Assembly: GCA_023484085.1 (NCBI GenBank)
Contig: JAMDAS010000001.1
Span: 1 to 64,000 of the forward strand
Length of the DNA: 64,000 nucleotides
Direction: 5' to 3'
Source: Candidatus Omnitrophota bacterium
Lineage (GTDB): Bacteria; Ratteibacteria; UBA8468; B48-G9; DTJG01
The position numbers and the translations under genes are program-made. Under the pieces are notes generated by a model. The model searched no databases, was not told the origin of the DNA, and saw only the letters and a list, made by a program, of their open reading frames with translations. Positions 873 through 63,125 of this stretch are shown one piece after another; within the stretch, counting starts at the first letter, position 1, and the number at the start of each line of letters is the position of its first letter.

Positions 873-946
873 TGTTGCGGGGGACCGATTTGAACGGCCG
901 ACCTCCGGGTTATGGGCCCGGCGAGCTACCACTGCTCCACCCCGCA
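873..946 (-). tRNA. Initiator tRNA-fMet (anticodon CAT)
   Basis: Reverse complement reads tGCGGGGTGGAGCAGTGGTAGCTCGCCGGGCCCATAACCCGGAGGTCGGCCGTTCAAATCGGTCCCCCGCAaca. Near-identical to E. coli tRNA-fMet. Anticodon loop CCCATAA with three consecutive G-C pairs in anticodon stem (initiator hallmark). 7-bp acceptor stem. 3' CCA not encoded. Confidence 0.9.
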
Positions 947-964
947 AAAAAGTTTATAAAAGTT

Positions 965-1120
965 TGTAAATATTCAGTAAACCCCGTCTCAGTGATTGAA
1001 ATGAAAATGTTCAGAGATAAGTTATGGATTGCTCTTTATATCTTTATAAAGATAAATGCTTCAAATAAAGATTTAAAGACAATCCAAACTTATTTCAAAC
1101 ACCATTCACTGAGTATTTAC
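965..1120. repeat. MITE-like dispersed repeat copy R1 (TIR + modules A+B)
   Basis: Begins tgtaaatattcagt... and ends ...cactgagtatttac. Contains gataagttatggattgctctt... and agacaatccaaacttatttcaaacacc modules shared with copies at 6779, 18222, 34118, 49631 and 61880. Confidence 0.8.
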
Positions 1121-1159
1121 GAGTTTATTATAATATTTAATAGACTATATGTCAATGTT

Positions 1160-1459: not shown

Positions 1460-3551
1460 GTCGTAATCTGACCCCTGATTTTTCTAATGTCTCTATTATT
1501 TTATGAACCTTATTATCAATGTTATCTTTTGTAAGATTACCTTTTTCATTTGAGAAAAAGATTGAAATACCGAGCCCGAGAATATCAACAGGTTCTTTAA
1601 ATCCAAATTTTTTCTGTAATTCTTTTTTTTCCCGGGCACTGAAAGAATATATGTCAAAAATTTTAATTTTATCTTTTGCAGAAAGCAATTCCGGGATATA
1701 GAGATTATCCACAATAAATCTCCATTCGGATTCAGGTCCGGCTTTTACTACCAGGGAAAGGTCCCTGCGAATCGGGGAAATAGAAGGAGTTTTATTTTTA
1801 TCAAAATACGATTTTAAAAATCCTTTATTTTTAAGTACTTCAAGGTCAATCTGGGAAATAAAAATCTCCTTACCCTGCAGGTCGTATTTTTCAAGAAGAG
1901 ATTGTGCCGGTTCAAAAATAAATCCCAAAATATCTTTTTGAGGCTCTTTTGCCGGAATATTCTCTAAAATAATATTATAATAGATACCTGTATTCCTTTC
2001 ATCCCGCTCAAAATCTATTACATAATCCTGTACCTGTACAGGATAAAAATACGTTTTCAAAAAATATTCAATCTTACCCTTAAACGTGGAAAAACCCTTA
2101 AATCCAGAATGGTCCCCTGTATCCATAATACCCAGAGAAACAGCCATATCAGAAGTTGGTTTATTGTCAGATAAAAAGTATGTATTTCCAATTTCAAATA
2201 AAGCAAGATTTTCATTTTTATACGCTGAATTTCTCTGAAAATTTTTTAAAAGCTCAATAACAAGAGATGGCCTTAAATGCGAAAAATTCATTGAAACAGG
2301 ATTTAAAATTTCAACAGGGTTTAGATTACCCATCTCAAAATTATTTATTTCATCCATGCTTACGAGTCCAAGATTAATTACTTCTGAAAAACCCAATTTT
2401 GTAAGAATATCTTTTGTTTCATTTATAAAAAAAATCGTTGAATCATCTTCTGATGGCGTAATCACTGCAACAGGTATTTCTTCATGAATTTTTTCATAGC
2501 CATGATATTTTGCAATTTCCTCTATCAAATCCACGTCATGTATAACGTCCTGCCTGTACGATGGGACAGAAACGTTAAGCAGGTCTCCTGAAATTCCGGT
2601 CTGGAACCCCAATCTGTTAAAAATTTCTTCTACAAGATTAACGGAAACATCATATCCAAGATAGCTATTGAGCCTGGTAAAACCAAGAGAGATAACTCTT
2701 TCCTTTGTTTTATAAGAACCCGTCAGTATTAATTCACCTGTCTCCCCCCCGCAGAGCTCATTTATCAATTTGCAGCATCTATCAAGGGCGGTAACAATTA
2801 TTTCAGGATCAATATTTTTTTCAAATTTAGAGGATGCCTCAGTCCGCAATCCGAGTATTTTAGAGGATTTTCTTATAATAGCCGGATTAAAAAATGCACT
2901 TTCAAGAAAAAGATTTGTTGTTTTTTCATTTACCTGTGAATTAACCCCGCCCATTATCCCTGCAATGGCAACAGGCCTGAAGTTATCAGCAATCACAAGA
3001 ATTTCCCTGTTTAATGTTCTTTTTACGCCATCAAGGGTTACAATCTGTTCACCATCAGATGCTCTCCGGACAAAAATCTTTGAATTAATAAGGTCTTTAT
3101 CAAATGCATGCATAGGCTGTCCTAATTCCCAGAAAACAAAATTCGTAATGTCCACAACGTTATTTACGCTGCGAAAACCTGCAGATTCAACCTTTTTTTT
3201 CAGCCAGCAGGATGAAGGCGATACTTTTACGTTTTCAATACATCTGCCTGCATAACAATAACAATCTTCATAAGAAGAAATTTCAACAGGAAGCTTTTTA
3301 TCTGTATGTGTGATAATTTTAAAATCCGGAAAATGAAATTTAAAGTCTCCTAAAGGGAGCAGACTTCTTGCCAGACCTGTAATAGACGTTAAATCTGCAC
3401 GATTGGAAGGTATTTCAATCTCAAATTCCCCAGGGGAATCCCCCTCTAAAATAATAGGGTTCAGCCCTAATTTTTCAAGGAAATTTTTAAGCTCATCAAC
3501 TGAATAATTTCCTTCAAGATATTCTCTGATTCCTTCATAAGAGTATTTCAT
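1446..3551 (-). CDS. pheT: Phenylalanine--tRNA ligase beta subunit
   Basis: 701-aa ORF downstream of pheS; B3/4 and B5 domain-like regions and a C-terminal anticodon-binding-like region; operon context pheS-pheT. Confidence 0.85.
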   Translation of the reverse strand: MKYSYEGIREYLEGNYSVDELKNFLEKLGLNPIILEGDSPGEFEIEIPSNRADLTSITGLARSLLPLGDFKFHFPDFKIITHTDKKLPVEISSYEDCYCYAGRCIENVKVSPSSCWLKKKVESAGFRSVNNVVDITNFVFWELGQPMHAFDKDLINSKIFVRRASDGEQIVTLDGVKRTLNREILVIADNFRPVAIAGIMGGVNSQVNEKTTNLFLESAFFNPAIIRKSSKILGLRTEASSKFEKNIDPEIIVTALDRCCKLINELCGGETGELILTGSYKTKERVISLGFTRLNSYLGYDVSVNLVEEIFNRLGFQTGISGDLLNVSVPSYRQDVIHDVDLIEEIAKYHGYEKIHEEIPVAVITPSEDDSTIFFINETKDILTKLGFSEVINLGLVSMDEINNFEMGNLNPVEILNPVSMNFSHLRPSLVIELLKNFQRNSAYKNENLALFEIGNTYFLSDNKPTSDMAVSLGIMDTGDHSGFKGFSTFKGKIEYFLKTYFYPVQVQDYVIDFERDERNTGIYYNIILENIPAKEPQKDILGFIFEPAQSLLEKYDLQGKEIFISQIDLEVLKNKGFLKSYFDKNKTPSISPIRRDLSLVVKAGPESEWRFIVDNLYIPELLSAKDKIKIFDIYSFSAREKKELQKKFGFKEPVDILGLGISIFFSNEKGNLTKDNIDNKVHKIIETLEKSGVRLRHEQI

Positions 3552-6761: not shown

Positions 6762-6778
6762 AATATTTTCCTGAAGTA

Positions 6779-6884
6779 AGAGATAAGTTATGGATTGCTC
6801 TTCTCTTCTTTGTAAAAACATTCTTTCAAACAAAGATTCAAAGACAATCCAAACTTATTTCAAACACCGTTCAATGAGTATTTA
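6779..6884. repeat. MITE-like dispersed repeat copy R2 (modules A+B, no left TIR)
   Basis: gagataagttatggattgctcttctcttctttgtaaaaacattctttcaaacaaagattcaaagacaatccaaacttatttcaaacaccgttcaatgagtatttac; lies between proB and proA. Confidence 0.8.
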
Positions 6885-15786: not shown

Positions 15787-15836
15787 GTAAATATTCAGTC
15801 AACGATGTTGCCTGAAGGCACTCAGTGAATATTTAC
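15787..15836. repeat. Minimal solo-TIR copy of the dispersed repeat family
   Basis: gtaaatattcagtcaacgatgttgcctgaaggcactcagtgaatatttac: inverted termini gtaaatattcagt / cagtgaatatttac flanking 20 bp; 25 nt upstream of methyltransferase start. Confidence 0.7.
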
Positions 15837-15859: not shown

Positions 15860-17521
15860 ATGAGTAAACTACAACAAAAACATAGAAACACAGAAACTTT
15901 GATGATTAGAGATTCTTATCAGCAATATTTATTCCCGGATATGCCTTTAATAACATCAAAACGAGAGTTCTTACATAAAGCAAGAAGCAAAACAAGTCTG
16001 GGATTACAATGCGAGAAAATAAATATTCTCATAAACAAAATTGGATTTGAGAATGCGTGGTATTCAATTTTAGCCACACATATCTATCAACTTCATCAAT
16101 CCCCCTTTGATTATCTTTTAAAACAACAAGAGTTTGCGAATGCAGTTATTTTGGATTCAGATATACTTTATTATCTTTCTATTGGTGAAATAGCAACACT
16201 TTATGAGTATTCTTTGTCGTATCTTAATAGAAATAAAAGAGCTCAGGAAGGACAGTATTTTACGCCTGATGATGTGGCTCAAGTAATGGCAAAAAGATCG
16301 CTCTTTTTCCCCCCTGATAAAATTTGGGTTGACCCTTGTTCAGGAATTGGTAATCTTTCCTTTTGGTTGATTAAGTTACAGAGTAATCCTGAGAGTTTTT
16401 TAACTAATCAACTTTATTTGATTGACAAGGATGCACTAGCATTGTTTATTGCCAGAACTTTATTCACACTATCATTTCAAAATAAATCAAAAAATTTATT
16501 TATTGAAATAGCACCTCGTTTTATAGTTGCAGATTTCCTTTTTGCTTCCGAACTTCCGGCATTTGATTTTGCTATTCTAAATCCACCCTATGTAGAAGTG
16601 GAATCTGATAATCGTTTTAAAACTGCTAAAACACGTAATTTGTATGCTTATTTTTTGGAACGAGTTATTAATCTATCAAGGGGATTTGTTTCTATTACAC
16701 CACAAACTTTCACGCACGGACAGAGATTTAAGACTTTACGCCAATTACTAATTGAAAATATGAAGGATATTTCAATTTATTGTTTTGATAATGTTCCTGA
16801 TACGATATTCAAAGGAATTAAATTTGGCTCAACCAATACAAATAAAACCAACAGCATAAGGGCGTCCATCACCGTAGCAAAATCTGAAAGTAAATTTCCT
16901 TGTTTTAAAATTACACCCTTGTTGCGATGGCGAACAAAAGAAAGAAAAAAAATACTGGAGAGTATTGATGATTATTTGACCAATGTAGAACCAAGCGTGG
17001 ATATTTTCCCCAAAATTCAAAAGGAACTTCTGTATTTATATTATGAAGTAAAAAAGGTGAAAAAAACATTGGTAAATCTTGTTTCAACCAATCCAACACA
17101 ATATAAACTCGTCATCCCAACCACGCCCAGATATTTTATTTCTGCACTGCGAACAGAAGTTAATCGTTCTTCATTCAGAATATTATATTTTTATAATAAA
17201 AAAGACTACGACCTTGCCTATATTTTATTAAATAGCAGTTATGCTTACTGGTGGTGGCGGATTAATGATGGTGGAATGACGATTTCAGAAAAAACTTTGC
17301 TTTCATTACCAATTCCAGATAACATTCCTGTTAACAGTCAACTTATATCAAAGATTGAACAATCAGAACTCACAAACCGAGTTTTCAAAAAAAATGCAGG
17401 TAAAAACAATGAGAATGTAAAACATAAAGCAATTCTTATAGGAGAAATAAATCAAACTCTTTTTCTTGATTTCGCTTCTGCACTTAACCATCTACATAAT
17501 AATTCGGTTATTACTATATGA
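15860..17521 (+). CDS. N6-adenine-specific DNA methyltransferase (gamma-class, HsdM/Eco57I-like catalytic domain + C-terminal putative target-recognition region)
   Basis: Motif X GQYFTP, motif I VDPCSGIGNLSF, motif IV FAILNPPYVEV in gamma-class order; 553 aa. One of only three plus-strand genes in the window. Confidence 0.65.
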   Translation: MSKLQQKHRNTETLMIRDSYQQYLFPDMPLITSKREFLHKARSKTSLGLQCEKINILINKIGFENAWYSILATHIYQLHQSPFDYLLKQQEFANAVILDSDILYYLSIGEIATLYEYSLSYLNRNKRAQEGQYFTPDDVAQVMAKRSLFFPPDKIWVDPCSGIGNLSFWLIKLQSNPESFLTNQLYLIDKDALALFIARTLFTLSFQNKSKNLFIEIAPRFIVADFLFASELPAFDFAILNPPYVEVESDNRFKTAKTRNLYAYFLERVINLSRGFVSITPQTFTHGQRFKTLRQLLIENMKDISIYCFDNVPDTIFKGIKFGSTNTNKTNSIRASITVAKSESKFPCFKITPLLRWRTKERKKILESIDDYLTNVEPSVDIFPKIQKELLYLYYEVKKVKKTLVNLVSTNPTQYKLVIPTTPRYFISALRTEVNRSSFRILYFYNKKDYDLAYILLNSSYAYWWWRINDGGMTISEKTLLSLPIPDNIPVNSQLISKIEQSELTNRVFKKNAGKNNENVKHKAILIGEINQTLFLDFASALNHLHNNSVITI

Positions 17522-18186
17522 TACTATCAAAACAACTATTAAATGAAATCGTTACAGGATTATTAAAAATGCCTAATAAATGGAATGCTCGTAAAATTTA
17601 TTTAGAGTGGAAAAGAATTAATAGCCGGCATTTTCGACAAACGGAATGGATTGGTTGGCGGTTCCAAGAACTTTGTGAACAATACCTGAAATCAATTCAA
17701 AAATTTAATTTTTCGCCTCAGAGATATGGTTATGCTGATTTTGATGCATTTGCAGAAATCCCATGGGACTTCAAGACACACATTCGTCAAAATCCTCGTG
17801 GACAACAAACTCACAAGGTTCCCGGCACTGATAGACGAGCGACTTTCCAAGCAATTAAGGATTATGGAGCAGTTGGTTTCATCATAGGAATAGGCGATGC
17901 TGTTTTTAACGATAAAGATAGAAGTTTTCAACTTTGGCACAATAAACTCAAGGGTGGTTTGTCAGAGTATGAGAAAGAGAGAGTATCCCGTGGGGCACCT
18001 TCCCGTCTACGTAAAACTGCGTTTTCTCTATGTGAAATTTGGATTATTGAAGTTGACGAAAAATTATACAAGAATCTTGAAACTTTTATGGAAGGGTTTA
18101 GAAATAGAGACGGAAACCCTCGTAAAGCAAAAGTAATGTTGGATTTAAATAAAATTGAACCGATTTACAAGATTGAGTTTTCATAA
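17518..18186 (+). CDS. Hypothetical protein translationally coupled to the methyltransferase; candidate restriction endonuclease/partner
   Basis: ATGA start/stop overlap with preceding gene. 222 aa. Possible PD-(D/E)xK-like core D76-x7-D84-F-K86 (YADFDAFAEIPWDFK). No other recognisable domain. Confidence 0.35.
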   Translation: MILSKQLLNEIVTGLLKMPNKWNARKIYLEWKRINSRHFRQTEWIGWRFQELCEQYLKSIQKFNFSPQRYGYADFDAFAEIPWDFKTHIRQNPRGQQTHKVPGTDRRATFQAIKDYGAVGFIIGIGDAVFNDKDRSFQLWHNKLKGGLSEYEKERVSRGAPSRLRKTAFSLCEIWIIEVDEKLYKNLETFMEGFRNRDGNPRKAKVMLDLNKIEPIYKIEFS

Positions 18187-18221: not shown

Positions 18222-18314
18222 GTAAATATTCACTAAGACAGTGTTTCCACCAAAAAGATTGGCGGATCAAAGACGAGCCAAACTTATTTCAAGCACCGTT
18301 AACTGAGTATTTAC
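18222..18314. repeat. MITE-like dispersed repeat copy R3 (modules C+B with both TIRs)
   Basis: gtaaatattcactaagacagtgtttcc…attggcgga…ccaaacttatttcaagcaccgttaactgagtatttac. Confidence 0.8.
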
Positions 18315-24254: not shown

Positions 24255-24292
24255 GTAAGAAAAATAAGTTCTGGAACAATCCAAACTTATCA
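24255..24292. repeat. Truncated copy R4 of dispersed repeat (A-start fused to B-middle)
   Basis: aaataagttctggaacaatccaaacttat. Confidence 0.6.
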
Positions 24293-31953: not shown

Positions 31954-32030
31954 GTAAATATTCACTGAACGGCGTAATATTTACAGGCCAAAGGCACAAA
32001 ATTTTTTAAAAACACCTTTGTGCCGTAATG
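31954..32030. repeat. Repeat copy R5: solo TIR module plus aaggcacaaa…tttgtgcc hairpin module
   Basis: gtaaatattcactgaacggcgtaatatttac followed by ggccaaaggcacaaaattttttaaaaacacctttgtgcc. Confidence 0.65.
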
Positions 32031-32062: not shown

Positions 32063-32320
32063 TTAAAAACGTTTATTAACGACTTCTAATTTCTCATAAA
32101 GTGTTTCCGGGGCAACATCGGCTCCATTTGGCCAAGTGATTGTTCCATTTTCTACATGGGCCGCACTGAAAAACGACACGTTTTTCAGTGGTTCAAATAC
32201 GGGACCCTTATTCAAATATTCAGAGAAGTCAATTTCTCCTTCAAGACCGTCATCAAAGACGATGTAAAAGATATACCCATTACGATGCTTAATAGTCTTT
32301 ACATCATTAAAATTCCACAT
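32063..32320 (-). CDS. DUF2442-family small protein
   Basis: 85 aa, pairs with upstream DUF4160 gene as in widespread two-gene cassettes. Confidence 0.6.
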   Translation of the reverse strand: MWNFNDVKTIKHRNGYIFYIVFDDGLEGEIDFSEYLNKGPVFEPLKNVSFFSAAHVENGTITWPNGADVAPETLYEKLEVVNKRF

Positions 32321-32334
32321 GGAAGACCCCCTTT

Positions 32335-32595
32335 TTACTTTAGTGGAGTTATCTTATTGATATCCTTCCCATCACGGGCAAGAATCCAATCTACTGCCAA
32401 TTCTTCTTCATGGAGATATATCCATTCACGAAGCAAACGCAAAGCTGTCCTGGAACCAAGATCTCCACGCAGCACATTTCCCATAAAATCCACCAGTGCT
32501 TTTTTCCCCTGATATACCGCATGTACATGTGGTGGAGTATGATCTTCATAATACATCTGGACGATAATACCAAAAAATCGTGCAATTTCCGGCAT
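32335..32595 (-). CDS. DUF4160-family small protein
   Basis: 86 aa with HTPPHVH signature; locally elevated GC relative to flanks. Confidence 0.6.
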   Translation of the reverse strand: MPEIARFFGIIVQMYYEDHTPPHVHAVYQGKKALVDFMGNVLRGDLGSRTALRLLREWIYLHEEELAVDWILARDGKDINKITPLK

Positions 32596-34117: not shown

Positions 34118-34208
34118 GTAAATATTCACTAAGACAGTGTTTCCGCCTCAAAGACAATCCACACTTATTTCAAATACTGTTCACTGAGTATTCACTGCAA
34201 ATATTCAC
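34118..34208. repeat. MITE-like repeat copy R6 (C+B modules with TIRs) inserted between nuoM and nuoN
   Basis: gtaaatattcactaagacagtgtttccgcctcaaagacaatccacacttatttcaaatactgttcactgagtattcac; abuts nuoM stop codon. Confidence 0.85.
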
Positions 34209-35785
34209 TTTCCCGGTAATGACTTCAAAAAAGTTTTTTCAGGGATTTTTTTATCTGATAAAAACTGTGATGCCACAGGAGCCACAAAATGACCCGGAGC
34301 GGTTACGGTTATCAGATTTTTAACAGACGGCTCAATCCTGGAAAGAAAAGGTTTCGGGTATAATCCGAGCCAGAACATCATTAAAATTATCGGTACAAGG
34401 ATTAATATTTCTCTTAACGAAAGGTCCGGCAGTTTTTTGACTTCCCGGTCAGCAGGTGTAACATAACTGACTTTCTGAAACATCCACAGCATATAAATAG
34501 CACTCAGGATTATTCCTGTGGATGCAATTGCAGTTAAGGCAATGTTCACCTTGAAAACACCAAGAAGAATCAGAAACTCTCCAACAAATCCGTTTAACCC
34601 CGGCAATCCTATGGAAGACAGAATGGTTATAAGTAAAAATGCTGAAAAAACAGGCATACTGCCGGATAATCCCCCAAAATCATTTATTCCTCTTTTCCCC
34701 GTCCTGTCATAAAGCATTCCCACAAGTAAAAACAGCGCAGAGATTGAAAGCCCGTGATTAATCATCTGCAAAACCCCGCCTGTCATTCCGGTATCAGTAA
34801 ACGAAAATATGCCAAGCATGATGAATCCAACCTGGCTGAAGCTGGAATAGGCGATTAGTTTTTTCATGTCCTTCTGGACGTATGCAATTAAAGCACCATA
34901 TATTATTCCGATTACGGCGAGTATCCCGATTGGATAAAAGAAATCCCTGGAAACTTCAGGGAAAAATGGTATGGCAAATCTTAAAAATCCGTATACCCCC
35001 ATCTTTACAAGTATGCCTGCCAAAAGAAGATTTCCCGGTATGGGTGCTTCTGTATAGGCGTCAGGAAGCCATGTATGAAACGGGAAAAGAGGAACTTTTA
35101 TGGCAAACGCAATGGCAAAACCGAGGAATAAAAAGAGTCTTGTTTTGAAAGGAAGATAAGCAGTTGAATACGCCAGCAGACTCTGCAGGTCAAAGGTACT
35201 TATACCTGTGGCTTTTTGATGCATAAAATAAATATATAATATCGCGGCTAACATCAGAACACTGCCAAACATGGTGTATAAAAAGAATTTCATTGTTGCA
35301 TAGACTCTTCTTTCTCCTCCCCATATACCAATAAGAAAATACATCGGTATAAGCATTGCTTCCCAGAAAAGATAGAAAAGCAGCATGTCAAGTGATACAA
35401 ATACTCCAAGCATCGTGGTATTTAAAAAAAGCATAAAAATCATGAATTCCTTAACCTTTGAACCAATGGAGCGAAAAGAATAGAGAATGGCTATAGAAGT
35501 AAGGAAAGTGGTAAGCATGAGCAAAAACAGGCTTATTCCATCAATGCCGATTGAATAGTTCGCACCTATGCTGCTTATCCACGGGACGAATTCCATGAAT
35601 TGAAAAGTCCCGACAGAAGGGTTGAACAGGAAAAACAGAGAAACTGACAGGAGAAAAGTAATGAATGAAAACAAAAAAGCAACGAGTTTTATAAAGGGTT
35701 TATTCTGCCCCGGTATAAAAGAAACGCAGACCGCGCCGAGAAGCGGTAAAAAAACGATAATACTTAAAATCGGAATGTCAGTCAT
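34205..35785 (-). CDS. nuoM: NADH-quinone oxidoreductase subunit M
   Basis: 526 aa antiporter-like subunit. Confidence 0.85.
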   Translation of the reverse strand: MTDIPILSIIVFLPLLGAVCVSFIPGQNKPFIKLVAFLFSFITFLLSVSLFFLFNPSVGTFQFMEFVPWISSIGANYSIGIDGISLFLLMLTTFLTSIAILYSFRSIGSKVKEFMIFMLFLNTTMLGVFVSLDMLLFYLFWEAMLIPMYFLIGIWGGERRVYATMKFFLYTMFGSVLMLAAILYIYFMHQKATGISTFDLQSLLAYSTAYLPFKTRLFLFLGFAIAFAIKVPLFPFHTWLPDAYTEAPIPGNLLLAGILVKMGVYGFLRFAIPFFPEVSRDFFYPIGILAVIGIIYGALIAYVQKDMKKLIAYSSFSQVGFIMLGIFSFTDTGMTGGVLQMINHGLSISALFLLVGMLYDRTGKRGINDFGGLSGSMPVFSAFLLITILSSIGLPGLNGFVGEFLILLGVFKVNIALTAIASTGIILSAIYMLWMFQKVSYVTPADREVKKLPDLSLREILILVPIILMMFWLGLYPKPFLSRIEPSVKNLITVTAPGHFVAPVASQFLSDKKIPEKTFLKSLPGK

Positions 35786-43606: not shown

Positions 43607-43620
43607 AATATCCTTAAAAA

Positions 43621-43664
43621 CAACCCAAACTTATTTTTTACTTTAGTTCCGTATAAATATTCAT
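43621..43664. repeat. Truncated repeat fragment R7 between nuoF and nuoE
   Basis: caacccaaacttatttttta…gtataaatattcat. Confidence 0.5.
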
Positions 43665-47432: not shown

Positions 47433-47545
47433 CACTACCTGTGCATACTCTCCGCCTTCTTTGGAAAGACAACTACCTGTATGGTAAAAACAGGCGTCGT
47501 GGTGAATTATAAAGCAGTAAAGAGAAATCCAGAACTTATCTCTTA
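47433..47545. repeat. Repeat copy R11 (inverted orientation; ~90-bp hairpin-rich module also found inside R8)
   Basis: cactacctgtgcatactctccgccttctttggaaag…cctgtatggtaaaaacaggcgtcgtggtgaattataaagcag…agaacttatctc is reverse complement of 49631-49745 with few mismatches. Confidence 0.75.
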
Positions 47546-49619: not shown

Positions 49620-49630
49620 ATATATATTCA

Positions 49631-49811
49631 GATATAAGTTATGGATTGCTCTTTCCTGCTTTATAAATTCACCACGACGCCTGTTTTTAGCAAACAGGCA
49701 GTCGCTCTCCAAAGAAGGCGGAGAGTATGCACAGGTAGTGCCTGTTCTGTGCATAATAAAGATTTAAAGACAATCCAAACTTACTTCAGACGTCGTTCAC
49801 TGAGTATTTAC
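49631..49811. repeat. Composite repeat copy R8 (module A + ~90-bp hairpin insert + module B)
   Basis: gatataagttatggattgctcttt…[cctgtttttagcaaacagg; ctctccaaagaaggcggagag hairpins]…agacaatccaaacttacttcag…cactgagtatttac. Confidence 0.8.
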
Positions 49812-49821
49812 GGTATTGTTA

Positions 49822-49866
49822 TGATAATAAAAATAATTTATCATATGAAAATTTTTTGTCAAATTT
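49822..49866 (-). promoter_or_regulatory. Candidate sigma70-type promoter module (TTGACA -35), duplicated at 51431-51476
   Basis: Minus strand: aaaTTTGACAaaaaattttcatatgaTAAATTattttt; -35 TTGACA, ~16-nt spacer, TAAATT -10-like; near-identical 45-bp copy downstream of the ubiA/menA-like gene. Confidence 0.3.
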
Positions 49867-51351: not shown

Positions 51352-51430
51352 ATAGAATCAAAAAAATTTACATAACCTGCTTTTTGTTTAATTTATATTA
51401 TTACTGTTATTATCATCATTATTATTATTC

Positions 51431-51476
51431 TGATAATGATAATAATTTAACATATAAAAATTTTTTGTCAAATTTA
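51431..51476 (-). promoter_or_regulatory. Second copy of TTGACA promoter-like module, upstream of porin gene
   Basis: Minus: aaaTTTGACAaaaaattttttatatgTTAAATtatta; followed by AT-only microsatellite-like tract (ataat/attatt). Confidence 0.3.
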
Positions 51477-53820: not shown

Positions 53821-53933
53821 TTAATCCTCCTGTTATATTCAAAAAAATAAAAATTTATAAAGTTGATAAATCTACTAATATATATTTTATAACCATTTTT
53901 ATTTTTGTCAAAATTATTTCAGCCAGCCGGTTA

Positions 53934-54938
53934 CTACTTACATTTTGGTAAATTATTACGATTAAATCCAAGATTTGCAACCCATACATTCCCAGCAGAA
54001 TCTATTGCTATACCAACAGGGTTACTTACCACATCGTATGTTCCAATAGTTTTTCCACCGGGGCCAAGCTTTGTTACACCTTTACTCCCATAATTTGCAA
54101 CCCATACATTCCCGGTAGAATCTATCGCTATACCCCCGGGAAAACTTCCCACAGGATAAATCCCAATAGTTTTTCCACTAAAACTTAGTTTTGTTACATT
54201 ATCACTCCCCTCATTTGTAACCCATACATTTCCATGAGGGTTTATCGCTATACCAATTGGACCGCTTCCCACATGATAAATCCCGATAGTTTTTCCACTA
54301 AAACTTAGTTTTGTTACATTATTACTTCCCTCATTTACAACCCATACATTTCCATGAGGGTCTACTGCTATACCAATTGGACCGCTTCCCACAGGGTATG
54401 TCCCGATAGTTTTTCCACTAAAACTTAGTTTTGTTACATTATTACTGCGCCAATTGGCAACCCATACATTTCCATGATGGTCTATCGCTATACCATCAGG
54501 TCCTTTTCCCACAGGATATGTTCCTATAGTTTTTCCACTGGAATTTAGTTTGGTTACATTATTACTTACAGGATTTGCAATCCACACATTTCCAGCAGAA
54601 TCTATCGCTATACCCCAAGGTCCTTTTCCCACAGGATATGTTCCAATAGACTTTCCAGTTGAACTAAGCTTTGTTACATTATTACTTCCAAGGTTTGTAA
54701 TCCATACATTTCCAGTAGAATCTATTGCTATACCAATAGGTCCTTTTCCCACAGGATATGTTCCAATAGACTTTCCAGTTGAACTAAGCTTTGTTATACT
54801 GTTATTTCCAGCATTTGCAACCTGTACTTTTCCAGTAGAAGCCCAAACAATGGAATTAATAAAAAATAAATACAGAATTGCTCCATAGAAGACCAAAAAT
54901 TTTAATAATCTTTTACTCATAAGTTCCTCTTTTTTCAT
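53934..54938 (-). CDS. Secreted NHL/YVTN-type beta-propeller repeat protein
   Basis: Signal/anchor N-terminus, then eight ~40-aa tandem repeats (…NNVTKLSxSGKTIGTYPVGxGPxGIAIDxxGNVWVxN…); underlying DNA is a ~120-bp tandem array. Confidence 0.65.
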   Translation of the reverse strand: MKKEELMSKRLLKFLVFYGAILYLFFINSIVWASTGKVQVANAGNNSITKLSSTGKSIGTYPVGKGPIGIAIDSTGNVWITNLGSNNVTKLSSTGKSIGTYPVGKGPWGIAIDSAGNVWIANPVSNNVTKLNSSGKTIGTYPVGKGPDGIAIDHHGNVWVANWRSNNVTKLSFSGKTIGTYPVGSGPIGIAVDPHGNVWVVNEGSNNVTKLSFSGKTIGIYHVGSGPIGIAINPHGNVWVTNEGSDNVTKLSFSGKTIGIYPVGSFPGGIAIDSTGNVWVANYGSKGVTKLGPGGKTIGTYDVVSNPVGIAIDSAGNVWVANLGFNRNNLPKCK

Positions 54939-61868: not shown

Positions 61869-61879
61869 AATAAAAAAGT

Positions 61880-62059
61880 GTAAATATTCACTAAGACAGT
61901 GTTTCCGCCTAAAAGATTGGCGGACAGGTATAATTTATTTACCTGAAGTAGAAAATAAGTTCTGGATTGCTCTTCTCATCTTTGTAAAAACGTTCTTTCA
62001 AACAAATCCTCAAAGACAATCCAAACTTATTTCAAACACTGTTCCACTTGAGTATTTAC
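61880..62059. repeat. Full-length MITE-like repeat R9 (TIR-C-linker-A-B-TIR)
   Basis: gtaaatattcactaagacagtgtttccgcctaaaagattggcgga…aaataagttctggattgctcttctcatctttgtaaaaacgttctttcaaacaaatcctcaaagacaatccaaacttatttcaaacactgttccacttgagtatttac. Confidence 0.85.
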
Positions 62060-62066
62060 TAAAAAG

Positions 62067-63125
62067 TTATATTAATTCCTGGTATACTTTTAAGGTTTCT
62101 TCAGTCATCTTTTCAACTGTAAATTTTTCAAGACTGATTTTTTGGGCATTTTCTGTTATCTTTCCTGTTTCCCGGGGATGTAAAAGAATGTATTTTATCG
62201 CCTCAACCATCTGTAATGAATCCCGGGGTTCAACAAGAAATCCTGTCCTTTTATTCTCTATCAATTCAGGTATCGCTCCTATGTTTGAGGCAACCACAGG
62301 AACACCCGCCATCTGGGCTTCCACCACCACCCTTCCAAACCCTTCAGGTTCAAAAGACGGAACTGAAAGAACATCCATTTTTTTTAAAGCCTGCCTGCTA
62401 TCCATTGACAGGATTTCAATAGAATTTTCCATTTTATTCCGGACTATACAGGCATGGATTCTTTTTTTATATTTTTCACTCCCTGTTCCCACCAGTATAC
62501 CCTTTACTTTCTCCCCTTCCTCCAATAGTTTTTTCATTGCTTTCATGTAATAAAAATGCCCTTTTGTTTTTGAAAATCTTGCAATCATCCCTATCACAGG
62601 GGTTTCGTTTATTTCTTTTTTAATGTCAAAAAAATCATTTTTTGAAACACCATTATATACAAGTCTGAGCTTTTCTTCAGGAACTTTCAGGTATTTTATT
62701 GCATATTCTTTAATTGCATTACTTACCACAATAATCCTCTGTCCAAAACCAAGCGATTTTGTCCAAAATCTTAAATGGCAAAAACTATGTATGCTTGTTA
62801 CCCATCCAATCCCGGGAAATTGTTTTATTACACTTGACATAATCCAGCAGGGAAACCTGCTTTCAGAATGGATTATATCGGGTTTTTCCTTATCTATGAT
62901 TTTTCTTAGTTCTTTTTTTGCATGTGCGAATATTTTTATATTTTTGTTATCCATAGAAAGGTCATGCCAGTCAATCCCTTTCTGCTTAAGAAGCGGAATA
63001 AACCTGCCATATCCGGAAACAACTATAACATGGTGGCCCATTCTGTCTGCCTCTAAAGAGAAATCGTATACGCCCCTTTCAATTCCTGCAAAATCCATTG
63101 AAGGAAGAACTCTTAAAATTTTCAT
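62067..63125 (-). CDS. Family 4 (GT-B) glycosyltransferase
   Basis: C-terminal EPEGFGRVVVEAQMAGVPVVAS (EX7E region). Confidence 0.75.
   Translation of the reverse strand: MKILRVLPSMDFAGIERGVYDFSLEADRMGHHVIVVSGYGRFIPLLKQKGIDWHDLSMDNKNIKIFAHAKKELRKIIDKEKPDIIHSESRFPCWIMSSVIKQFPGIGWVTSIHSFCHLRFWTKSLGFGQRIIVVSNAIKEYAIKYLKVPEEKLRLVYNGVSKNDFFDIKKEINETPVIGMIARFSKTKGHFYYMKAMKKLLEEGEKVKGILVGTGSEKYKKRIHACIVRNKMENSIEILSMDSRQALKKMDVLSVPSFEPEGFGRVVVEAQMAGVPVVASNIGAIPELIENKRTGFLVEPRDSLQMVEAIKYILLHPRETGKITENAQKISLEKFTVEKMTEETLKVYQELI

Follow-up and report, generated by a model that had tools for sequence, protein, structure and literature searches.

What are the short mosaic repeats that recur between the genes of this bacterium: mobile DNA, a regulatory RNA, or the debris of one larger duplication? 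Members of the Omnitrophica (Omnitrophota) have not been cultured and are known from metagenomes, and the window analyzed here is the whole 64-kb stretch (64,000 nucleotides) of one such genome. It has 37% G+C and a GC skew that is negative throughout, with nearly all genes on the minus strand. Its annotated genes are of the housekeeping kind save for one small restriction-modification cassette, and include pheST, proBA, thiC, ilvD, two pfk genes, aroA, dapB, and prfA, together with a 14-subunit nuo operon, tatC, apbE, an H+-pyrophosphatase, and several glycosyltransferases. Eleven loci in the window have a mosaic repeat in common. We consider it likely that these repeats are a MITE family of ~155-180 bp whose members are mobilized in trans by a DDE transposase—most likely of the IS66 ISBst12 type—encoded elsewhere in the genome.

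The first-pass annotation had proposed a family with at least 11 copies per 64 kb, and the proposal stands: All 11 reported loci carry family sequence, far above what chance would supply. The left terminus GTAAATATTCACTAAG matched the window eight times at ≤3 mismatches (1.2 expected by chance; 0 of 100 shuffles reached eight). A repeat search of the window turned up six instances of the right arm, four of arm A, and three of the left arm; when each copy was compared with the window by short-word BLAST, all 11 reported loci were linked, and no other sequence of note. A profile of the right arm (module B plus right terminus), run with nhmmer, identified six full arms in the window, with E-values of 1e-14 to 1e-16; besides these it returned just known remnants and no additional copies. 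Copies range from 31 to 187 bp, below the ceiling of ~300-500 bp usual for MITEs, with a full element of ~155-180 bp; no ORF is conserved across copies, and the element has no coding capacity. Roughly 11 of the 20 listed gaps of at least 60 nt hold a copy, a count that follows a rough gene model in which some gaps are artefactual. The loci themselves were correctly placed, and the limits of four copies (6779, 43621, 49631, and 31954) had to be redrawn (Table 1). For the first, the left limit moved to 6764 on the strength of 90% identity with 61936-62044; in the interval 31954-32030, family sequence ends at 31984 and the remainder is a separate hairpin.

The full element is one long imperfect, nested palindrome. 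The terminal inverted repeats that had been claimed are real—GTAAATATTCACTAAG pairs with CACTGAGTATTTAC, and six window copies retain both ends—whereas the internal modules that had been described as separate units are not: All of them are arms of a single hairpin, with A and B the two arms of one stem. From the outside inward, it consists of the paired left and right termini (inverted repeats of 17-26 bp, GTAAATAYTCASTRAAC), a GTGTTT/AAACAC stem, a stem formed by arm A (GATAAGTTATGGATTGCTCTT) and arm B (AAGACAATCCAAACTTATTTC), and an innermost stem CTTTGT/ACAAAG that closes a loop of ~15 nt. Each terminus is itself a near-perfect 12-bp palindrome, GTRAATATTYAC, as read from the sequence. The fold is stable as either nucleic acid: Copy 61880-62059 reaches -59.6 kcal/mol (z = -7.3) when folded as RNA and -31.6 kcal/mol (z = -7.1) when folded as DNA. 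Across 13 copies the minimum folding energies are alike on either strand. Mispairs in the core stem are likewise balanced, with four G-U cells and four A-C cells (an A-C being a G-U on the opposite strand), and one stem pair covaries, as G-C in three copies and A-U in two. Scans of three copies disclosed no promoter-like or terminator-like site recurring inside the element; the sole strong promoter in those scans (1155 to 1127) belongs to flanking sequence.

The shorter forms are derivatives of this palindrome that arose by internal deletion or truncation or that bear an insert. Two copies consist of termini only (15787 and 31954), and two retain termini and arm B without arm A (18222 and 34118). 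A subfamily carries a multi-hairpin insert of ~88-90 bp, here called X, in place of the loop; it is represented by the copy at 49625 and by an inverted A plus X fragment at 47433.

Table 1. Repeat copies and associated features, with window positions unless a locus outside the window is named
Feature	Coordinates	Strand	Composition and context
Best-preserved full-length copy, 180 bp	61880..62059	+	Left terminus, GTGTTT stem, two side hairpins (CCGCC/GGCGG and CAGGTA/TACCTG), arm A, loop, arm B, AAACAC stem, right terminus
Putative 8-bp target-site duplication, left copy AAAAAAGT	61872..61879		7/8 match to 62060-62067
Putative 8-bp target-site duplication, right copy TAAAAAGT	62060..62067		Last base overlaps stop codon of glycosyltransferase gene 62067-63125
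Full-length variant, 155 bp	966..1120	+	Both termini, arms A and B; between promoter (1155 to 1127, minus) and tRNA-Met (946 to 874)
Left-truncated copy	6764..6884	+	Linker, arm A, loop, arm B, right terminus; occupies proB-proA spacer
Minimal 50-bp form	15787..15836	.	Two termini back to back, near-perfect palindrome; 24 nt 5' of methyltransferase ATG
Deletion derivative	18222..18314	+	Left terminus, GTGTTT stem, CCACC/GGCGG hairpin, arm B, right terminus; without arm A
38-bp remnant	24255..24292	+	Base of arm A joined to arm B as mini-hairpin; without termini
Minimal 31-bp form	31954..31984	.	Left terminus 17 bp plus right terminus 9 bp; 100% identical in two independent Logan assemblies
Deletion derivative	34118..34208	+	Left terminus, GTGTTT stem, arm B, right terminus plus extra partial terminus TGCAAATATTCAC; nuoM-nuoN junction
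Degenerate remnant	43610..43664 (start 43610, not 43621)	+	Arm B and terminus-like end; nuoE-nuoF spacer
Reverse-oriented fragment	47433..47545	-	Arm A and insert X only; 91% identical to 49634-49741
Composite copy	49625..49811 (start approximate, not 49631)	+	Degenerate left terminus, arm A, insert X replacing loop, arm B, right terminus
Copy in MAG FK4.bin61	L003 1627-1765		Between metK and coaE; antisense to flanking genes
Copy in MAG FK4.bin61	L004 6108-6212		Between rsmD and coaD; antisense to flanking genes
Second-family element	L011 4197-4360		
Second-family element	L016 ~1969-2135		
Second-family element	L018 1066-1229	reverse	

Orthologous junctions in a relative lack the repeat. The closest relative with long contigs is represented by JGI 3300039716 locus L005 and Logan locus L006, and its NuoN is 80% identical to that of the window. 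In L005 the nuoM-nuoN spacer measures 31 nt and the nuoE-nuoF spacer 13 nt, where the window has 110 and 75 nt; at both junctions—filled in the window, compact in L005/L006—it is the repeat that makes up the difference. The metK-coaE junction holds a copy in L003 and spans 22 nt in L035, but the L035 spacer contains TCTTACTT, which also borders arm A in several copies, so that it is not a clean empty site. No copies were detected in ~57 kb of sequence from relatives whose proteins are 67-85% identical (L005-L010), including 21 kb of the ~80% relative.

The family nevertheless extends beyond the window. The exact 23-nt arm-B pattern, which occurs four times in the window, occurs twice across 185,579 GTDB species-representative genomes, both times in MAG FK4.bin61, accession JAJYYV01, and had 0 matches in JGI metagenomes and viral contigs. 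FK4.bin61 and the ~80% relative appear to belong to one species. So restricted a distribution of arm B indicates that the expansion was specific to the lineage of the window. The two FK4.bin61 copies match the window copies at 90-100% identity in the A/B core and have degenerate termini, a comparison with n=2 and with both copies found by requiring exact arm B. The flanks of the copies are mutually unrelated, at the 11 window loci and at the two in FK4.bin61, and on this ground segmental duplication is ruled out as the origin: The copies are dispersed and not fragments of one larger duplicated region.

Independent assemblies point the same way. In the Logan assemblies of two runs that contain this organism, contigs stop ~30-50 nt into copies 34118 and 61880, and copy 31954 is intact. 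Contig ends inside copies are the behavior of multi-copy DNA, and an assembly artefact of the MAG is ruled out. An empty-site variant at copy 61880 was sought in the same data and rejected, as the contig ends within the element; the copy is thus present there too.

A putative target-site duplication accompanies the best-preserved copy. The sequences that border copy 61880-62059, AAAAAAGT and TAAAAAGT, agree at seven of eight positions; a match of at least seven has p ~0.0012 among 200,000 random 8-mer pairs from the window. Removal of the element and one copy of the duplication leaves a spacer of ~10 nt between two glycosyltransferase genes, and the predicted empty junction would read TAACTTTTTTATTATG on the gene strand. 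Duplications of this kind do not extend to the other five two-ended window copies, whose flanks match at 1-4 of 8 positions, the chance level.

A second family supplies further cases. A search of metagenomes with a degenerate terminus pattern returned 14 loci, of which three carry an element and 11 are isolated; the latter have a single terminus without an inverted partner or a transposase ORF and were treated as chance, as were all 10 viral loci returned by the pattern, single matches lacking the same two features. The second element, of ~164 bp, is found in L011, L016, and L018 with 83% mean column identity, on contigs that differ in flanks and G+C. Its interior is unrelated to that of the window family, and its termini are similar over 19-26 bp. 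In L011 and L018 the terminus is repeated, inverted, at the far end of the element, where it matches the window right arm over 23-26 nt; this far-end terminus lay outside the query pattern. The L018 element is flanked by GACTTGAG/GACTTGAG, an 8/8 match (null probability 9e-5), and the L011 element by TGCGAGGG/TGCGTTGG, a 6/8 match (null probability 9e-3). The evidence for an 8-bp duplication thus rests on one window copy and two sister-family elements. Two non-coding families that have their termini alone in common, together with 8-bp duplications, are as expected if one type of transposase mobilizes different MITEs. BLAST of both families against PLSDB plasmids gave short chance matches only.

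As a separate observation, two ENA metagenome contigs (L017 251-275 and L020 1777-1801) share a low-G+C, nearly ORF-free sequence that starts with a terminus-like 26-mer. This 26-mer is 92% identical to the window left end; a partner terminus was not found on these contigs, and the similarity may be a chance match.

The termini offer a way to ask which transposase might be responsible. IS66-family inverted repeats are 20-30 bp long, begin GTAA(GCG), and make 8-bp direct repeats (PMC11946415). In ISDge4 of Deinococcus geothermalis, a member of the ISBst12 group of the IS66 family whose transposition has been observed, the terminal repeats are GTGACTACTCAGCA and GTAACTGCTCAGCA and the direct repeat is 8 bp (PMC12898284). 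The window elements resemble this group in the GTAA start of their termini (which begin GTAAAT), in inverted repeats of ~20-26 bp, and in 8-bp duplications; GTAAATACTCAGTG and either ISDge4 terminal repeat agree at 10 of 14 positions, counted by eye against this single reference insertion sequence. They differ from it in having no transposase gene, in measuring just 31-187 bp, in an inverted repeat that reaches ~65 bp inward and makes the whole element a foldback, and in lacking the classical IS66 terminus GTAAGCG. Other IS families with 8-bp duplications (IS6, ISL3, IS256, IS1595, ISAs1) have different ends. The window's annotated genes include no transposase of whatever type, and no autonomous element with matching termini was found in the window, in 36 fetched loci, or beside the single-terminus metagenome matches. 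On the character of their ends and duplications, we provisionally class the elements as IS66/ISBst12-derived MITEs; the parent element and the identity of its transposase are inferred, as are any current activity and any effect on RNA.

The sequence of events would then be as follows. A DDE transposase would recognize the 17-26-bp termini and mobilize non-coding elements in trans, with 8 bp of target DNA duplicated on insertion. The family would have expanded in this Omnitrophica lineage, with copies settling where tolerated—intergenic spacers, intra-operon spacers, and a tRNA leader—and decay after insertion, by internal deletion, truncation, nested insertion, and inter-copy recombination, would have produced the "modular" mosaic. 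The long hairpin would be a consequence of the extended inverted repeat, and a co-transcribed copy would form a very stable stem-loop in the mRNA, at about -50 to -60 kcal/mol between cistrons.

Two observations do not follow from this mechanism. Eight orientable window copies lie antisense to their flanking genes, as do the two FK4.bin61 copies, with only the 47433 fragment reversed (10/11), and such a bias is not predicted by a simple DDE cut-or-copy model. Because gene direction and replication direction are confounded in the window, selection and strand-biased insertion are indistinguishable there. Also counting against the mechanism, the conserved core and degenerate termini in FK4.bin61 are the opposite of what is expected if termini alone were constrained, but those copies were selected by exact arm B.

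Both observations would be explained if the A/B hairpin core were itself the selected structure—an RNA stem-loop acting in polycistronic transcripts, for instance as an RNase III or stability determinant or in translational coupling—and the transposon ends a mere vehicle: A selected core would account for the 10/11 orientation bias relative to genes and for a core better kept than the termini in a second species. The very stable fold (z ~-7), the covarying stem pair, a core 90-100% conserved between genomes with ~80% protein identity while the termini decayed, and the location of the nuoF and proA ribosome-binding sites in element-derived sequence are all in line with such a role. The two strands nevertheless fold at about equal energy, and G-U mispairs in the core stem are as frequent as A-C, so that there is no strand signal. 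Copies 18222, 34118, and 47433 lack one arm, placement relative to start and stop codons is variable, the relative functions without the element at those operon junctions, and the conservation in FK4.bin61 was read from copies chosen by exact arm B. Nor does Rfam recognize the structure: A scan of the window at the gathering threshold passes tRNA-Met only, and the best scores on two copies, 15-18 bits, compare with thresholds of 42-102. We regard selection on the hairpin as unlikely, and give a similarly small chance to its fuller form, in which an A/B core carried by an IS66-type MITE would have been co-opted across Omnitrophica operons to provide ribosome-binding sites and stop codons along with hairpins for processing or stability. 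As to the initial choice between a MITE-like element and a REP/NEMIS-like regulatory RNA, the evidence sides with a non-autonomous transposable element, and the regulatory RNA found no direct support.

Transposition by another chemistry has less to recommend it. Were the repeats REP/REPIN-like palindromes, spread as single-stranded hairpins by a RAYT (an IS200/IS605-type Y1 transposase), one would expect copies that are palindromic, extragenic, and abundant, as these are; the two-termini forms 15787 and 31954 resemble inverted REP doublets, the orientation bias agrees with replication and GC-skew direction, and most copies have no clear target duplication. However, 8-bp duplications occur at the best-preserved copy and at two sister-family elements, and REP/RAYT and IS200/IS605 transposition leaves none. 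The termini start GTAA, in the ISBst12-like manner, against a REP consensus that is GTAG-headed; elements of 155-180 bp with 17-26-bp termini are bigger than REPs; and a Y1 transposase is absent from the window. We hold this origin to be quite improbable. Least credible, and in our judgment very improbable indeed, is that the 12-bp near-palindromic ends GTRAATATTYAC are operators of a dimeric DNA-binding regulator and that the repeats mark its regulon. Every terminus is indeed a nearly perfect 12-bp palindrome, and copy 15787 is placed between a -10-like box and the start codon of the methyltransferase gene, yet the sites also fall after stop codons, within operons, and between convergent genes, with no consistent association with promoters; the flanking genes (nuo, pro, glycosyltransferases, tRNA, restriction-modification) are functionally unrelated; and the conserved interior and target duplications would be left unexplained.

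Among known small repeats, the element behaves like Correia/NEMIS, RUP, ERIC, and similar bacterial MITEs, with no shared sequence and with different termini and duplication length. Like the Correia/NEMIS elements of Neisseria, it is small (~100-155 bp in theirs), abundant, intergenic, and often intra-operon; has long terminal inverted repeats that yield RNA hairpins on co-transcription; and exists in full-length and internally deleted forms together. Correia elements have 26-bp inverted repeats of the TATAGCGGATTAAC type, a TA target duplication, an IHF site, and outward promoters. Those sequences are absent here, the duplication is 8 bp, and there is no recurring internal promoter-like site. 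BOX elements of Streptococcus pneumoniae are similarly modular and intergenic, with variable module number and combination and with complementary outer modules that form a stable stem-loop, but they show no sequence similarity to this family, which also has no Rfam match; BOX elements have neither insertion-sequence-like terminal repeats nor target duplications. The likeness to REP/BIME/REPIN-RAYT systems lies in high-copy extragenic palindromes, doublet forms, and orientation bias, set against REP units of 20-40 nt with a GTAG head and no target duplication, where the element has 155-180 bp, GTAA, and 8-bp duplications. No description of the repeat family, its termini, or an Omnitrophica MITE was found in the searchable literature, and the family is possibly undescribed so far.

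Insertions appear to have altered the junctions they occupy. That every copy is intergenic, as had been stated, holds in general and fails for 34118-34208, whose terminus supplies the TGA stop codon of nuoM (34205-34207). NuoM has 526 aa in the window and 514 aa in the relative (window 34205-34244 compared with L005 9930-9969), and its 12 extra C-terminal residues, IPEKTFLKSLPGK, run up to the TGA within that terminus. Positions 43611-43616, which are element-derived, give the ribosome-binding site of nuoF, AAGGAT, when read as their reverse complement; 6769-6772, again element-derived sequence, likewise give the AGGA of proA. Read from the sequence of these junctions, the two ribosome-binding sites and the stop codon would be effects of insertion.

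Other features of the neighborhood deserve mention in their own right. A perfect sigma-70 consensus promoter, TTGACA-17 nt-TATAAT at 1127-1155 (-), reads through copy 966-1120 into tRNA-Met(CAT) at 874-946 (-); the tRNA precursor would accordingly carry a 155-nt hairpin leader. The block at 15860-18186 (+), the only plus-strand gene block in that part of the window, lies between the two pfk paralogues and encodes an Eco57I-like N6-adenine DNA methyltransferase (553 aa) and a 222-aa ORF without a family match; it is probably a type II restriction-modification cassette. The cassette has a G+C content of 33% and a GC skew near zero and is bracketed by copies 15787-15836 and 18222-18314. A composite transposon around it is not supported, the outer 8 bp matching at 2/8 by eye.

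Directly after nuoN, the window has a DUF4160/DUF2442 gene pair at 32063-32595 (-) that is absent from the relative L005, which has radical-SAM and heme-maturation genes in that place; synteny breaks there. A 53-nt AT-rich direct repeat, 89% identical between its copies at 49814-49866 and 51423-51475, is intergenic at both positions, one 5' of the apbE/FMN-binding genes and the other 5' of a porin-like gene. Within it, GATAATGATAATAATTT resembles a Fur box, and the repeat may be a shared operator or promoter. Seven tandem 120-nt repeats of 60-82% identity at 53853-54872 correspond to NHL/beta-propeller blades of protein 53934-54938 and are an ordinary protein repeat.

The element is probably an ordinary kind of MITE in a little-studied lineage and leaves the current understanding of MITEs unchanged; the finding is solid and useful for the annotation and assembly of Omnitrophica MAGs, and its general interest is modest. 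The family fills most of the larger intergenic gaps of the window and breaks short-read assemblies of the organism, which affects MAG contiguity and binning. A defined terminus and an 8-bp duplication, common to two MITE families, provide a way to find the transposase system, which is probably ISBst12-like. In the organism itself, the copies would illustrate how MITE insertions reshape operon junctions, through the extension and new stop of nuoM and the ribosome-binding sites of nuoF and proA.
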